A stretch of DNA of 64,000 bases from an uncultured Clostridia bacterium (GTDB lineage: Bacteria > Bacillota > Clostridia > TANB77 > CAG-508), in assembly GCA_944386655.1 (NCBI GenBank), contig CALXBX010000009.1:67833-131832 (forward strand), read 5' to 3'. Position 1 is the first letter of the stretch; the number at the start of each line of letters is the position of its first letter. The notes under the pieces were generated by a model that saw nothing but the letters and a program-made list of their open reading frames with translations, searched no databases and was not told the origin of the DNA. Position numbers and translations under genes: made by a program. Below, piece by piece: positions 14,375 to 29,424 of this stretch.

Positions 14375-16105
14375 ATGAGAAATTTTGTAAAGAAACAAAC
14401 AGGTATTACCTTGATAGCACTTGTCGTAACTATAATAGTCCTAATTATTCTAGCCGGTGTTTCTATAGCAATGCTAGTTGGAGAAAATGGTATTATTACA
14501 CAGGCACAAAGGGCAGCACAAGAAACAGAGCAAGCAAAAAGAGACGAAGAAGCAGGACTATCTAGTTTAGAAACAGCCATACAAGAAGCTTTAGGAAATG
14601 TGTACAATGAAGAAAAAGGAGTAAATGCCCCAAGACTAACTGCAGGAATGACACCAATTAAATTCACAGACCCAACCGATTCAGCAAAAGGAACTGTAGT
14701 AGAAACAACAAGTGAGGATGCAGAATGGTATGAATATGGAACAGAAGAAGGTAAAAAGAAATGGGCAAATGCACAAACGGAAGATGGAAGTATGTGGGTA
14801 TGGATACCAAGATTTGCTTACAGAGTAGATAACACAAATAAAACATTTGATATTGTATTTTTAGTAGGAACCACAGACCAATATTATGATGAAAACGGCG
14901 TATTGCAAACAGCCAAACGTTGCACAAGTGAAGATGAGCTAGTGGACACTACAACAGGATATACCGTACACCCAGCCTTTACAGATGAAACAGCAATCAA
15001 TTACAGAAATGGAGGCTGGGATAAAGAGATAACAGGAATCTGGGTAGCTAAATTTGAAGCAGGCTATGCAGGAGGAAATAACACAGCAACAGCAGTAGCA
15101 AGTAATGTAAATTATACACAAACAAATGCATGGGTACCAGACGTAGAAACAGGAGAAACGACAACAAATAATGGAGCAAGTAAACCAGCAAGAAACTGGC
15201 TAGATGGGGAATACGGAAGTAACACAACTGCAATCAAATATCCCGTATTCCAACCAGTAACTTATACCATGAATTATATTAATCATAACGATGCCTACAA
15301 TATCGCTAAGGCACTAAGTTCCAATGGAAACCCATATGGCTTTAATGGAGCAGCTGATAGTCATTTAATGAAAAATAGTGAATGGGGAGCAGTAGCATAC
15401 CTTTCTAAGAGTGAATATGGATTAGGAGCAACGGATATAACGGTAAATAATATTAGTTTAAATAATTCTACACAAAGTGTATATGCCGTAACAGGATGTA
15501 CGAGCAATAGTACATCAGCAACCACCAGAACCACAACCATAGCTACCATAAATGGAACAACCGGAAACACAGCAAATGGAGGTGTATATACTTGGGAACA
15601 ATTAACAGGAACAACAGCAAGTAGCACAGGAAGTATTTATGGAATATATGACTTAAGCGGTGGAGCATGGGAAAGAACAACAGGGTATGTAGCAAATCAA
15701 AATAGTTACTTAAGTACTTATGGAAGAAGTATAGCTTATGATGGAAATAATCTAAGAACAATTAGTACCAAATATACAACTGTATATCCACATAATAGCG
15801 AAACAGATAAACCGGGAATTACAGATGTTGCCAACGATAGTACAAACTTAAATATAGCAGGTAATAATAACTATGCACTAAATACATTAATTTACGGAGA
15901 TGCCATCCGAGAAACATCTACGGCTGGAACCGGCAACAACTCATGGTATGACGACGCCTCTTACTTCCCTGGGCTTAACTCTCCGTTCTCTATCCGTGGT
16001 GGTGGGTCCCACGATGGTTCAACTGCCGGTCTGTTCTATTTCTATCGTAATGGTGGGAATAGCTTTTATAGCGGTGGCTTCCGTGCGGTCGTGGTCGTGT
16101 CGTAG
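14375..16105 (+). CDS. large type IV pilin-like protein with C-terminal FGE-sulfatase-like domain
   Basis: RBS ggagg; N-terminus MRNFVKKQTG/ITLIALVVTIIVLIILAGVSIAMLVGENGIITQAQRA (paralog family). C-terminus …SPFSIRGGGSHDGSTAGLFYFYRNGGNSFYSGGFRAVVVVS matches FGE-sulfatase (RGGS…YR…GFR) motifs. The last ~70 codons are GC-rich. Confidence 0.7.
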   Translation: MRNFVKKQTGITLIALVVTIIVLIILAGVSIAMLVGENGIITQAQRAAQETEQAKRDEEAGLSSLETAIQEALGNVYNEEKGVNAPRLTAGMTPIKFTDPTDSAKGTVVETTSEDAEWYEYGTEEGKKKWANAQTEDGSMWVWIPRFAYRVDNTNKTFDIVFLVGTTDQYYDENGVLQTAKRCTSEDELVDTTTGYTVHPAFTDETAINYRNGGWDKEITGIWVAKFEAGYAGGNNTATAVASNVNYTQTNAWVPDVETGETTTNNGASKPARNWLDGEYGSNTTAIKYPVFQPVTYTMNYINHNDAYNIAKALSSNGNPYGFNGAADSHLMKNSEWGAVAYLSKSEYGLGATDITVNNISLNNSTQSVYAVTGCTSNSTSATTRTTTIATINGTTGNTANGGVYTWEQLTGTTASSTGSIYGIYDLSGGAWERTTGYVANQNSYLSTYGRSIAYDGNNLRTISTKYTTVYPHNSETDKPGITDVANDSTNLNIAGNNNYALNTLIYGDAIRETSTAGTGNNSWYDDASYFPGLNSPFSIRGGGSHDGSTAGLFYFYRNGGNSFYSGGFRAVVVVS

Positions 16106-16160
16106 CACTCTGAAAAAAAGTTTACGTAATTTTAATTAACCTTGGAAAAAGCTAGAAAAT

Positions 16161-16196
16161 CCCCTTTATGTCCTATACGACATAAAGGGGATTCCT
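16161..16196 (+). terminator. perfect 14-bp inverted repeat hairpin (terminator-like)
   Basis: tcccctttatgtc-ctatac-gacataaagggga. Confidence 0.5.
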
Positions 16197-16358
16197 ACAT
16201 CATTATATGTTTACATAAATACTAATAGTTTTTATCAATATGAACATTGTACTCAATTACGTGTGTCACGAAAAGGTCGAAAGACTTTTGCAACTGTATA
16301 AATGATGGTAGCAGACCTAACGTAGGCATCATTCAGGTGAAGCCTGCAAACCACTCCA

Positions 16359-16478
16359 AGAATAATGTCGAAAATTATGGAAATAAGTTACCACTAAAAA
16401 GCAAAATAAAAAAGTAAGAAAAAATAAGGAAAAGATATAATCCTCTTCGTAAGAATAAAAACGAGGAGGAAATTTTTT
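16359..16478 (+). promoter_or_regulatory. conserved leader/promoter region of pilin paralogs (type B)
   Basis: About 110 bp highly similar to 55644-55762 and 48074-48176 (aagaataatgtcRaaaattatggaaataagtWacca…gataRaggTATAATcc…gaggagg). Confidence 0.55.
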
Positions 16479-27153: not shown

Positions 27154-27176
27154 AATCGAAGTAAGGAGGAAGAAAT

Positions 27177-27701
27177 ATGGGAGATAGTTTAATTACCATT
27201 ATTGCAATATTTTTAGCAGCCATCTTAATGTTCGTGTTTCCACTAATGTCTATGTCAGAAAGAACAGATGATGTATCCCAACTTGCAGTACAAACAGCTA
27301 CTACAGAGTTTGTAGATACTATTAGAACAACAGGAAAATTAACATTAGACGATTATGATAAATATATTCAAACAATTTCATCAACAGGAAATTCCTTTCA
27401 AGTGGATATGTTAGTACAAGTATTGGATGAGAATCCTGGAGTAAAAACAACACAAGCAGAGATGACAAAAATAGGAGAAAACTTATATTATAATTTATAT
27501 ACTAGCCAAATAGAAGATACTTTGCAAAGTAATGGAAGAATTACTTTAAAAGAAGGAGATTTGGTATCTGTATCTGTAAAAAATACAAATCAAACAATCT
27601 CACAATTATTGAAAAATTTCTTCTATCAAATAGCAGGAAATGATACATATCAAATAGCTGCACAGCATGCTGGTATGGTAACCGTAAATGGTACAAAATA
27701 G
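27177..27701 (+). CDS. TadE-like pseudopilin (N-terminal TM)
   Basis: RBS aaggagg; MGDSLITIIAIFLAAILMFVFPLMSM…. Confidence 0.4.
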   Translation: MGDSLITIIAIFLAAILMFVFPLMSMSERTDDVSQLAVQTATTEFVDTIRTTGKLTLDDYDKYIQTISSTGNSFQVDMLVQVLDENPGVKTTQAEMTKIGENLYYNLYTSQIEDTLQSNGRITLKEGDLVSVSVKNTNQTISQLLKNFFYQIAGNDTYQIAAQHAGMVTVNGTK

Positions 27702-27780
27702 AGACAATAAAGATTAGAGTGAATGGTTAGAAAAAAGATCTAACTACTACCATTCTAATCTTTTTTAGAAAGGAAAACAA

Positions 27781-29424
27781 ATGAAATTACAACATTTAGC
27801 TATTATATTTGTTATTATCATATTACCTATTTCTATGGTAGTAACAGCATATATTCAAACGCAAATAGATACAATAAACTTGCAAACAACTTATACATCT
27901 AAATTGCAGAATGCAACTTATGATGCTATTAAAGCTTTTCAGCTAAATACGATTAATAATAAATATTCTAGTGTCAGTGACTCTAAAATTAGAGATATAG
28001 AAGCATCTATTTCTACTTTTTTTAATTCACTTGGTACGAAAATGGGAGAAAATGGAATAGATCAAGAGTCTTTAAATGATTTTGTGCCGGCAATTTTATA
28101 TGTCATGTATGATGGTTATTATATTTATGGAAAATATAGAAATGAAAGTACAGCTAGTTATCAATATGGCTTAAAACCATATATTTATTATTCTTGTCGT
28201 TATGTAAGAGGAACAGATGACTTTGTAGTAAATTATAGTTTAGATAATGCCATTACTGTTTTTGGAAATATAGATGGAACCTATGTAACACGTTCAGGAT
28301 ACCTAATTAATCCTAGTTTAGTTAGCAACATTAATGAGGCAAATAAAACTTTAGTATATGATGGAGAAACAATAGAAAAAGAAATTTTAACAGAGCAAAT
28401 TGTATTATTAAATGAGGCAGGAGAAGTAATTAATAATTCTTCACCAGTTACTTATCAATATACGGTATATCAAAACGCTAAGATTTATTATGATCCTGGT
28501 GCAACAGATGGTATGACTTATTTTTGGTATACAGATAATAAAAAACAAAGAATCTACGATCAAGACATTTTAAATTATGTAACAAGTATGACGATAGGGG
28601 GAAATTTATATAGCGAGAGTGCTTTTCAATATTATAAAGACGCTTATGAATTTAGTACTTGGGTAAATGAACACATGGGAGATGTTACACAAAGTAATGC
28701 AAGAGATATGGATGGAAATAGCATTTCAGATTTTGCAGTAAATACAGGGGAAGAGAAGATATTCCGTTTGAATAGCATTAATAATCCTTTGTTAGATGGC
28801 TCTACCTTTAATGAAAACAGAATAAGTGTTATTAGAAAAAGCATTCAAACAAATTTAGCATCAGCAATTGCAAATTATAATCAAGGAGCAAATAATAGTT
28901 ATCAATTTGTATTGCCAATTTTTTCAGAAGAAGATTGGGACAAATTAGTAAATAACATTTCCGTTGCAACTTTTATGCAAGGTGTACCAATAGGAACAAA
29001 ATATTTTAATAACTATTGTATTATTACCAATGATAAAAATGAAGAAGTAGTAACAGAAGATTCACTTTATGTCATTACAGAAGATGGAGAAGTACATTTG
29101 CCAACTTGTCAAGATATTATAGGAGAAAATGTTATAGGAGTTTATAGTAATGTTTCTTTTGAAAGACAGTCTATTCATATATCAGATACCTATGAAGTGC
29201 ATTATTATCCACATGCGAATAGTAAATGTTATCATTGTATGGTAAATGTGGCTGCCACCTACGATATAGATGGTTTAATTGGGGGAACAATAGAAATTTT
29301 TGATTCTAGTGGAACAAATCAAACTAGAAATATAAAAGGTACAAGTTTAAGAAAACAATATTTAACAGCTTTAGGAAGAGAACGCTACGATTTATATCGT
29401 ACCAATGACTATTTTGGTGTGTGA
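27781..29424 (+). CDS. TadG-like large membrane-anchored pilus-associated protein (547 aa)
   Basis: N-terminal TM MKLQHLAIIFVIIILPISMVV then large extracellular domain; last gene of the cluster; stop overlaps repeat copy b. Confidence 0.4.
   Translation: MKLQHLAIIFVIIILPISMVVTAYIQTQIDTINLQTTYTSKLQNATYDAIKAFQLNTINNKYSSVSDSKIRDIEASISTFFNSLGTKMGENGIDQESLNDFVPAILYVMYDGYYIYGKYRNESTASYQYGLKPYIYYSCRYVRGTDDFVVNYSLDNAITVFGNIDGTYVTRSGYLINPSLVSNINEANKTLVYDGETIEKEILTEQIVLLNEAGEVINNSSPVTYQYTVYQNAKIYYDPGATDGMTYFWYTDNKKQRIYDQDILNYVTSMTIGGNLYSESAFQYYKDAYEFSTWVNEHMGDVTQSNARDMDGNSISDFAVNTGEEKIFRLNSINNPLLDGSTFNENRISVIRKSIQTNLASAIANYNQGANNSYQFVLPIFSEEDWDKLVNNISVATFMQGVPIGTKYFNNYCIITNDKNEEVVTEDSLYVITEDGEVHLPTCQDIIGENVIGVYSNVSFERQSIHISDTYEVHYYPHANSKCYHCMVNVAATYDIDGLIGGTIEIFDSSGTNQTRNIKGTSLRKQYLTALGRERYDLYRTNDYFGV

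Follow-up and report, generated by a model that had tools for sequence, protein, structure and literature searches.

Twelve consecutive genes on the + strand of a 64,000-nucleotide stretch of DNA from an uncultured Clostridia bacterium (contig CALXBX010000009.1; the whole stretch is referred to here as the window) probably encode a very divergent Tad-like filament machine, related to the type IVc systems, of a Firmicute with a single membrane, with a likely role in adhesion and gut colonisation. The conserved core spans 17495-29424 and contains, in this order, the genes for a CpaB-like protein, two degenerate ParA/MinD-like proteins, a CpaF/TadA-like ATPase, a 693-aa two-domain platform and seven small or large proteins with a single N-terminal hydrophobic membrane helix each. 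The succession SAF - ParA-like - ATPase - platform - pilin - pseudopilins also characterises a Tad locus on a Streptomyces plasmid. With an ATPase closest to CpaF/TadA and a gene order matching that of monoderm Tad loci, the proposal of the first-pass annotation, which had read a Tad-type type IV filament machine of a Gram-positive spore-former from the letters of the sequence, was upheld. The system as such is already known, as the window carries an orthologue of a described cluster, i.e., the same system in another species of the order TANB77.

Gene order and the published TANB77 cluster

Relatives of the cluster were collected from one genome per species, which yielded at least 569 relatives of the ATPase; the synteny counts and median identities given here refer to the best 80 loci. 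These belong exclusively to uncultured gut Clostridia (CAG:780, CAG:245, Ca. Scatovivens and many metagenome-assembled genomes), and we take the three named lineages to be members of the GTDB order TANB77. For CAG-245, this placement is confirmed by published work (PMC11680825). The order of the twelve genes recurs in about 70-80 of the 80 loci, indicating a block kept together far beyond chance, and the synteny in relatives on which the first-pass annotation had made its reading depend is thus present. Median identity across the loci amounts to 81% for the ATPase, 66% for the platform, 63% for the protein termed p174 here, and 36-53% for the remaining cluster genes. As MurC (63%) and SpoIVB (59%) from the same loci are less well kept than the ATPase, the motor appears to be under strong constraint or selection. 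The twelve genes are as follows:

17495..18403, + strand: CpaB/RcpC-like protein with one N-terminal membrane helix and a SAF domain (SAF and TIGR03177 matches)
18423..19121, + strand: first ParA/MinD-like protein, ~230 aa (weak MinD profile match)
19160..20005, + strand: second ParA/MinD-like protein, ~280 aa (weak ParA profile match)
20037..22008, + strand: CpaF/TadA-family secretion ATPase with an N-terminal membrane helix, split here (CpaF and T2SSE matches)
22053..24134, + strand: predicted inner-membrane platform, 693 aa, a single chain where Tad has TadB and TadC (membrane topology, GspF/PilC fold)
24153..24782, + strand: MENASKAL paralog, 209 aa (MENASKAL N-terminus, one membrane helix)
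24846..25355, + strand: MENASKAL paralog, 169 aa (MENASKAL N-terminus, one membrane helix; 78/80 loci)
25442..25870, + strand: 142-aa protein with one N-terminal helix (73/80 loci, at the same position between pilin paralogs)
25950..26387, + strand: MENASKAL paralog, 145 aa, the shortest (MENASKAL start)
26413..27153, + strand: divergent MENA- paralog, 246 aa, MENAVEAIKMAF... (M1 E2 N3 A4 and membrane helix; 69/80 loci)
27177..27701, + strand: p174, minor-subunit candidate with one N-terminal helix, MGDxLITIIAI... (median identity 63%, the best-kept small protein)
27781..29424, + strand: p547, large terminal protein with one N-terminal helix (69/80 loci, median identity 36%; orthologue of 'pilin 938')

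The cluster had initially been drawn as a contiguous 15-kb unit at 14375-29424. According to the list of open reading frames (ORFs) of the window, all sizeable ORFs of that interval do lie contiguously on the + strand, but this same-strand run consists of two unrelated parts, 14375-17314 and 17495-29424, and only the second is a conserved unit. The two large pilin-like genes of the first part, the second of which is frameshifted, have no counterpart in any of the 80 related loci; they are not part of the machine, although they had been counted as members. A seventh small membrane protein (25442-25870) was missing from the earlier list. In TANB77, the cluster is positioned between truA and spoIVB. 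In Clostridium sp. CAG:780 it directly follows cdaA-truA and a small membrane protein, unlike in the window, where about 10 kb separate the small membrane protein from cpaB. A scan for promoters and terminators inside the cluster gave results no better than those for shuffled sequence. A role in sporulation, as the adjacency to spoIVB and the mostly spore-forming hosts might suggest, was rejected as unsupported, and the cluster also occurs in Butyrivibrio, presumably a non-spore-former.

A putative Tad-like pilus cluster has been reported by Kim et al. (Nat Commun 2024, PMC11680825) as a hallmark of the uncultured gut order TANB77, in which a stretch of 10-14 genes was found in 122 of 129 species. 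The reference copy of that study, the twelve genes 927-938 of CAG-245 sp000435175, was annotated using eggNOG, InterPro, DeepTMHMM, AlphaFold2 and Foldseek, and the products were labelled as CpaB, TadZ, CpaE, TadA (640 aa, one transmembrane helix), a 693-aa TadC/TadB-like protein, six small pilin-like proteins and a protein of 621 aa whose N-terminus is TadE/PilV-like (PMC11680825). The sizes given in Table 1 of the same study are 358, 231, 280, 640, 693, 165, 170, 143, 146, 237, 178 and 621 aa, and are matched by the ORFs of Clostridium sp. CAG:245 (L010; 357, 230, 279, 639, 692, 164, 177, 156, 143, 236 and 177 aa). The window holds the same twelve genes in the same fixed order and with near-identical sizes, and its ATPase is 85% identical to that of Clostridium sp. 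CAG:245. It differs from the published cluster in that the frame of the ATPase is interrupted, probably by an artefact, in that its last protein has 547 instead of 621 aa, and in that about 10 kb of variable surface-protein genes precede cpaB. As the published assignments are also the same, the initial statement that no characterised system shows this combination does not hold. Recombinant protein 938 has been reported to activate dendritic cells in a TLR4-dependent manner and to improve anti-PD-1 responses in mice (PMC11680825).

Motor, platform and their partners

Scans of all cluster proteins against Pfam, NCBIfam and PHROG gave almost nothing above cut-off, and the assignments are therefore presented protein by protein. 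The ATPase gene of the window appears as two ORFs that overlap, 20037-21311 (424 aa) and 21193-22008 (271 aa), and is split by one extra C at position 21180 inside the Walker A codons, between GEQGC and GKTT. Removal of this C (position 21180 then reads TTGCGGAAA) yields a 656-aa ATPase with the motif GEQGCGKTT, and it is only after this repair that the protein qualifies as a member of the CpaF/TadA family. The repaired protein matches the CpaF structure 8rkd in the PDB at E 4e-10 and Pfam T2SSE at 9.6e-6 with 24.9 bits, exactly the cut-off, and its best NCBIfam match is TIGR03819 ('TadA family conjugal transfer-associated ATPase') at 1e-8. It is 27% identical (1e-14) to CpaF of Rhizobium, while PilB-like HofB of E. 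coli was found at E 0.2 only. The repaired ATPase contains a Walker A (GCGKTT), a Walker B-like IIGEV and a THHA His-box. The label tadA was thus right with respect to CpaF likeness, but the intact reading frame that went with it was not, as the insertion at 21180 had been overlooked. Residues 1-260 (20037-20820) form an N-terminal extension that opens with the membrane helix and is without match in CpaF structures; this extension of ~260 aa is kept in the plasmid and Paenibacillus homologues and sets the ATPase apart from that of Tad/Flp systems.

The insertion raises the question of whether the cluster is a decaying pseudogene array in this genome, with a motor killed by the frameshift in Walker A and nothing being assembled; if the frameshift were real, the machine of this strain would be dead. 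The neighbouring second large upstream gene is frameshifted as well, as decay would predict. However, the ATPase is uninterrupted in 80 of 80 relatives, none of which has the extra C, and all other cluster genes are intact. Moreover, an extra C directly before GGAAA breaks four genes of the window: truA (6327), the ATPase gene (21180), spoIVB (29990) and a gene split into 61715/62487 (62495). Deletion of the C restored the frame at 4 of the 22 CGGAAA sites of the window, compared to 3 ORF joins upon control deletion at 237 other GGAAA sites. This recurrence points to a systematic base-calling, sequencing or assembly error rather than to gene decay, possibly at a methylated motif. The frameshift in the ATPase gene is therefore likely an artefact, and decay of the cluster is extremely unlikely.

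The 693-aa protein encoded next to the ATPase has about seven membrane helices or hydrophobic segments around two soluble helical domains, and from this arrangement, in which the helices bracket both domains, it is predicted to be a single-chain platform of the GspF/PilC type. Only the fold comparison was successful here: the soluble domain was modelled with the GspF/PilC fold, so that a polytopic platform with cytoplasmic domains of this fold, as in type IV filament systems, appears to be present. Profile searches against the PDB and hhalign comparisons with four TadB/TadC proteins gave no significant match to T2SSF, and a profile comparison of the N-terminal with the C-terminal half revealed no significant internal repeat. 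With an exhaustive profile search, 1225 platform clusters (50% identity) were collected, of which 687 had E values of 1e-30 or below, and canonical T2SSF proteins were never reached. Whereas Tad systems have TadB and TadC with one T2SSF domain (PF00482) each, the window has one gene in place of two.

The platform had been described as a tadB-tadC fusion, which is probably wrong. In the orthologous protein 931, the first half is TadC-like and the second half TadB-like (PMC11680825, Table 1), and TadC aligns with the N-terminal and TadB with the C-terminal domain found in the unsplit platforms of archaea (Denise et al., 2019, PMC6668835). An order of TadC followed by TadB, as taken from these two studies, points to the unsplit archaeal arrangement rather than to a fusion of adjacent tadB and tadC genes. 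Archaeal Epd-like type IV pili have been proposed as the ancestors of Tad (Denise et al., 2019, PMC6668835), and the cluster shares with them the unsplit platform with this order of halves, putatively TadZ-like partners and pilins with a globular head. In contrast, no archaeal ATPase in the PDB search came as near to the ATPase of the cluster as bacterial CpaF did, a class III signal peptide cleaved at (K/R)-G/A is missing, and the host is a bacterium.

The CpaB assignment was borne out. The protein encoded at 17495..18403 combines an N-terminal anchor with a SAF domain (Pfam SAF 2.3e-5, 25.3 bits at a cut-off of 21), as do CpaB/RcpC proteins, and matches TIGR03177 pilus_cpaB at 2e-10, which is below the trusted cut-off (40 versus 71 bits). 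It occurs in 76 of the 80 loci with a median identity of 41% and shares 32% identity with the SAF protein encoded in the Thermobacillus composti plasmid cluster; its profile found no sequence match in the PDB. For the two genes that follow, previously listed as deviant tadZ, the presence of two proteins of ~230 and ~280 aa was confirmed, but the matches to MinD/ParA profiles are weak (E 0.0055 and 8e-4). The first (18423..19121) matched no Pfam or NCBIfam model, and its family profile reaches MinD 4v02 at E 0.0055, with still weaker matches to other chains of MinD, ParA and Soj; it is found in 77 of 80 loci (median 53%). With the profile of the second (19160..20005; 80 of 80 loci, median 44%), 3ea0, an ATPase of the ParA family, was matched at E 8e-4 and Soj at 0.04. 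For the orthologues, proteins 928 and 929, a TadZ-like and a CpaE-like fold, respectively, have been reported (PMC11680825).

Taken together, the cluster shares with the Tad/Flp systems (type IVc; Caulobacter, Aggregatibacter, Actinobacteria) the ATPase of the CpaF/TadA bifunctional class (27%), the SAF protein, proteins at the position of TadZ/CpaE, a platform of putative GspF/PilC fold and the gene order of monoderm Tad loci. A ComG competence pseudopilus, which has in common with the cluster a single-membrane host, an ATPase, a polytopic platform and several pilin-like proteins encoded in one operon, was rejected: ComGA was matched at E 2e-4 with 20 bits (cut-off 300), there was no ComGB/T2SSF match, the KGFTLxE motif is absent from the cluster proteins, and ComG operons are without the CpaB-like and ParA-like genes. 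A conjugative type IV secretion system (T4SS) was rejected as well, as the VirB11 and TrbB models scored 18-20 bits at cut-offs of 250-500, the other genes of the window are housekeeping, ribosomal and surface-protein genes, and no T4SS genes flank the loci L008 or L019. Neither of these two systems, which the first-pass annotation had named as alternatives, thus gained support from profile searches.

Pilin-like subunits and their processing

The seven one-helix proteins range from 142 to 547 aa and start with MENASKAL, MENAVEAI, MGDSLIT, MKLQHLA or MKKTFLI. Four of them are MENA- paralogs, three with MENASKAL and one with MENAVEAI. They had been described as four MENASKAL paralogs with common blocks at both ends; an N-terminal block is indeed common to all four, but the C-terminal block (...QTGR(I/V)...F) occurs in three only. 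The N-terminal consensus MENAsKAL holds in more than 120 copies across the loci, where the M-E-N-A start is kept in all four paralogs, and in the 145-aa protein, residues 1-12 (MENASKALIIAG) do not vary among 45 diverse homologues. The structure model of this protein (pLDDT 81.5) comprises a helix of 51 residues (residues 2-52) and a small alpha/beta head, a predicted layout corresponding to the classic pilin 'lollipop'. The 145-aa protein is a candidate for the major subunit. The 142-aa protein has one hydrophobic segment at residues 4-22 and gave no family match above any cut-off.

Homologues of p174 occupy the same position in all four plasmid clusters described below and in Paenibacillus (E 1e-7 to 1e-13). 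The N-terminal ~170 aa and residues ~336-435 of p547, which has no family match, are common to the ~330-aa last gene product of the plasmid clusters, and p174 and the N-terminal domain of p547 thus form a pair conserved across the whole family. The earlier labels TadE-like and TadG-like were guesses from position and size that found no support at the level of sequence. p174 has no Pfam TadE match, and its profile found nothing in the PDB; at E values up to 10 neither p174 nor p547 matched TadE, and BLASTP against TadE/TadG of Rhizobium and Streptomyces was empty. Pseudopilins of the TadE/TadF/TadG type, as defined by the N-terminal TadE domain of Pfam, were accordingly not found in the cluster. 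A TadE/PilV-like fold in the first ~25% of the p547 orthologue is claimed in PMC11680825 only.

The subunits also depart from Flp pilins. These are small (50-80 aa) and carry the G/XXXXEY motif, whereas the cluster subunits considered here have 145-246 aa with a globular head, and no protein of the cluster shows a Gly(-1)/Glu(+5)/Tyr(+6) pattern; TadV and the TadE Pfam domain are missing as well. That the N-termini fall outside both the Flp and the ComG motifs (no G/XXXXEY, no KGFTLxE) had been noted before and was confirmed. The pilins have neither a hydrophilic leader nor a Gly at -1, and the predicted helix starts at residue 2. Gly12 was considered as a cleavage site and rejected, since this residue is embedded in the hydrophobic helix and since neither the paralogs nor the homologues from Lysinibacillus and C. 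argentinense conserve it. By sequence, the subunits are not what a prepilin peptidase would be expected to cleave. In line with the earlier reading, the window also has no gene for such an enzyme: a GxGD(V/I)K motif was found neither in the window nor in 1.54 Mb around the 80 loci, and the only polytopic ORFs of the window encode the platform, SecY and one unrelated protein. Class III signal peptides together with an A24 peptidase (TadV/PilD/ComC/FlaK) are hence not seen within the window or the flanks of the loci. A prepilin peptidase gene is likewise lacking in MSH loci (PMC6668835).

Several points weigh against a Tad-like filament machine. No filament has ever been seen, as no TANB77 strain has been cultured, and it remains true that no gene of the cluster has been tested in a bacterium so far. 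The platform and 8 of its homologues have no Pfam T2SSF match even at E 10, the pilin head has no relative in the fold search, and no pilin-like protein matches the Flp, TadE or N_methyl models at the sequence level. A prepilin-peptidase cleavage motif is absent from all seven proteins, no A24 peptidase gene was found in the window, within 10 kb of the 80 loci or within 10 kb of the Paenibacillus locus, and the frame of the ATPase is broken in the window sequence.

N-termini of prepilin type do occur in the window in proteins of a different class. The 576-aa product of the upstream gene at 14375-16105 has such an N-terminus, and so has that of the second large gene (16479-17314), which is frameshifted into 16479-16670 and 16694-17314, contains GLUG repeats and weakly matches N_methyl; both begin with (K/R/T)GITLIALVVTIIVLIILAGVSI. 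Altogether, five window proteins have a GITLIALV-type start (3707-4237, 14375-16105, 16479-17314, 48177-49382 and 55661-56953), with the consensus (K/R/T)GIT(L/M)I(A/S)L(V/A)VTII(V/I)L(I/M)ILAGV(S/T)I...VG(D/E)(N/D)G, which is of prepilin type without Glu5. Of the five, one reaches the gathering score of Pfam N_methyl and a second falls just short of it; an FGE-sulfatase domain is present in one, and two are encoded inside the ribosomal-protein/secY-adk region. In the 1.54 Mb of flanks of the other loci, only 1 such start was found. All five are surface or secreted proteins with a prepilin signal and show no link to the cluster; their N-termini imply a PilD/ComC-type peptidase somewhere in the genome. 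A hairpin with a 17-bp stem and a T-run at 16156-16195, just 3' of the 576-aa gene, is the only strong terminator-like site in 14000-30000 and suggests that this gene forms its own transcription unit. Between the small membrane protein (6509-6964) and the two upstream prepilin-signal genes lies a variable island (7020-14169) encoding two cohesin proteins (one of them also cadherin-like), a sortase, an SH3_3 protein, a Big_2 and dockerin protein, and an AAA_14/DUF4143 ATPase. These resemble the surface parts of a cellulosome and are absent at this position in Clostridium sp. CAG:780.

Homologues in other Firmicutes and the putative filament

The published search covered gut species only, at >=50% similarity, and the cluster was called exclusive to TANB77 (PMC11680825). 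It is not confined to this order. Chromosomes of Paenibacillus contain full homologues of the cluster, and so do megaplasmids from Lysinibacillus, Clostridium and Butyrivibrio. For the ATPase core, identity to plasmid-borne 'TadA' amounts to 53-69% in Thermobacillus, Cohnella, Paenibacillus, Sporosarcina, Cytobacillus, Alkalihalophilus and Lysinibacillus, and to 39-47% in Clostridium and Butyrivibrio. The platform occurs on 35 large Firmicute plasmids, and its family comprises at least 687 clusters at 50% identity. No description of this wider family was found in the literature (pBsph, DUF5704, Bacillota megaplasmids, Paenibacillus Tad).

Among the plasmid carriers are T. composti pTHECO01, L. 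sphaericus pBsph, C. argentinense pRSJ17_1 and B. proteoclasticus pCY360, where the proteins are annotated as hypothetical. The order in the plasmid and Paenibacillus clusters is SAF, ~232 aa, ~277 aa, ATPase of ~620 aa, platform of ~690 aa, pilin-like, p174-like and a protein resembling the N-terminal part of p547, the last protein having ~330 aa. Between T. composti and the window, the ATPase is 55% and the platform 38% identical (E 1e-154). Related pilin starts appear in the distant clusters (MSTNASKAL, MNNASTAL, MDDNATKGL), but these have one or two pilin-like genes, in contrast to the four MENA- paralogs and the 142-aa protein of TANB77. In Thermobacillus (L081, 17313-22158), Lysinibacillus (L082, 15566-19939) and Paenibacillus (L089, 14702-19340), the cluster is always followed by genes for an SLH protein and a DUF5704 protein of 1000-1200 aa. 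Neither gene follows the cluster in TANB77. By Pfam, the giant protein of Paenibacillus (~1100 aa) is a Big_2/DUF5704 protein; DUF5704 itself was not found mentioned in the literature. A GGDEF protein is also encoded downstream on the T. composti and C. argentinense plasmids. Because surface proteins and a GGDEF protein are its neighbours in other hosts, the machine most likely serves in adhesion.

The same neighbourhood might be taken to indicate a machine for pseudopilus-type secretion or surface display, resembling the type II secretion system (T2SS) or the archaeal bindosome, in which a short MENASKAL fibre pushes out or presents proteins. Possible cargo would be the adjacent large surface proteins or the scattered prepilin-signal proteins. 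The presence of several pilin paralogs of similar size and the lack of a small Flp-like major pilin are compatible with this, as are the SLH and ~1100-aa Big_2/DUF5704 proteins always encoded downstream in Bacilli, and the five window proteins that join a prepilin-type N-terminus to a large C-terminal domain, two of them encoded directly upstream. However, none of the 80 related loci has these two upstream genes, the flanks of the cluster elsewhere contain next to no GITLIALV-type starts (1 in 1.54 Mb), and the ATPase is closest to CpaF, a pilus motor. Secretion or display as the main function is thus unlikely.

The occurrence of homologous clusters on 35 large Firmicute plasmids could also suggest a plasmid-derived pilus for mating or DNA exchange, similar to the R64 thin pilus or a DNA-uptake fibre, that became fixed in the TANB77 chromosome. 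On B. proteoclasticus pCY360 (L084, 17730-22807), the cluster adjoins a VirD4-type coupling protein, PrgI and VirB4 (CD1110 family), which is the only copy seen with conjugation-module neighbours. On the T. composti plasmid, a replication-relaxation protein is encoded ~5 kb upstream of the cluster, and the 'conjugal transfer-associated' model TIGR03819 (1e-8) is the best NCBIfam match of the ATPase. Yet all 35 plasmids were typed as non-mobilizable, the cluster is chromosomal in Paenibacillus too, and the TANB77 copies between truA and spoIVB have no relaxase, VirB4 or VirD4 nearby. As the VirB11 and TrbB models also remain far below their cut-offs, and the block contains no ComEA/ComEC-type genes, we regard a mating or DNA-exchange pilus as very unlikely.

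For a Tad-like filament machine, which we consider the probable identity of the cluster, assembly might proceed as follows. The ATPase hexamer, tethered by its own N-terminal membrane helix, would dock on the cytoplasmic domains of the single-chain platform, and ATP-driven movements of the platform would raise the MENASKAL subunits from the membrane by way of their N-terminal helix, so that a helical fibre is extended at its base. Priming of assembly and a place at the tip may fall to p174, p547, the 142-aa protein and the 246-aa MENA- paralog; of these, p547 could be exposed there as an adhesin or to interact with the host. The degenerate ParA/MinD-like pair may serve as non-catalytic scaffolds or positioning factors, as TadZ does, and the CpaB-like protein as a conduit guiding the fibre through the wall zone. 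As the helix starts directly and a Gly(-1) site is missing, the pilins possibly remain uncleaved and may assemble without processing by a prepilin peptidase, which is the least certain step.

A further-reaching and rather doubtful interpretation is that the cluster represents a separate branch of type IV filaments in Bacillota, characterised by a platform that was never split, with its chain in the archaeal order of TadC then TadB, and by 'leaderless' MENASKAL pilins that function without a prepilin peptidase. If this were true, the machine would stand, as a living form, midway between the Epd-like pili of archaea and the Tad pili of bacteria, and no type IV filament functioning without an A24 peptidase would have been known before it. 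For the biology of type IV filaments, the features that matter are a predicted single-chain platform invisible to the existing models, subunits unlike Flp and the lack of a prepilin-peptidase signature. The cluster is a signature trait of TANB77, an uncultured gut order that has been linked to the response to anti-PD-1 therapy. Since homologues of the machine are encoded in cultivable and genetically tractable bacteria, such as Paenibacillus and L. sphaericus with pBsph, and on plasmids of Clostridium and Butyrivibrio, its assembly, processing and function are directly testable there.

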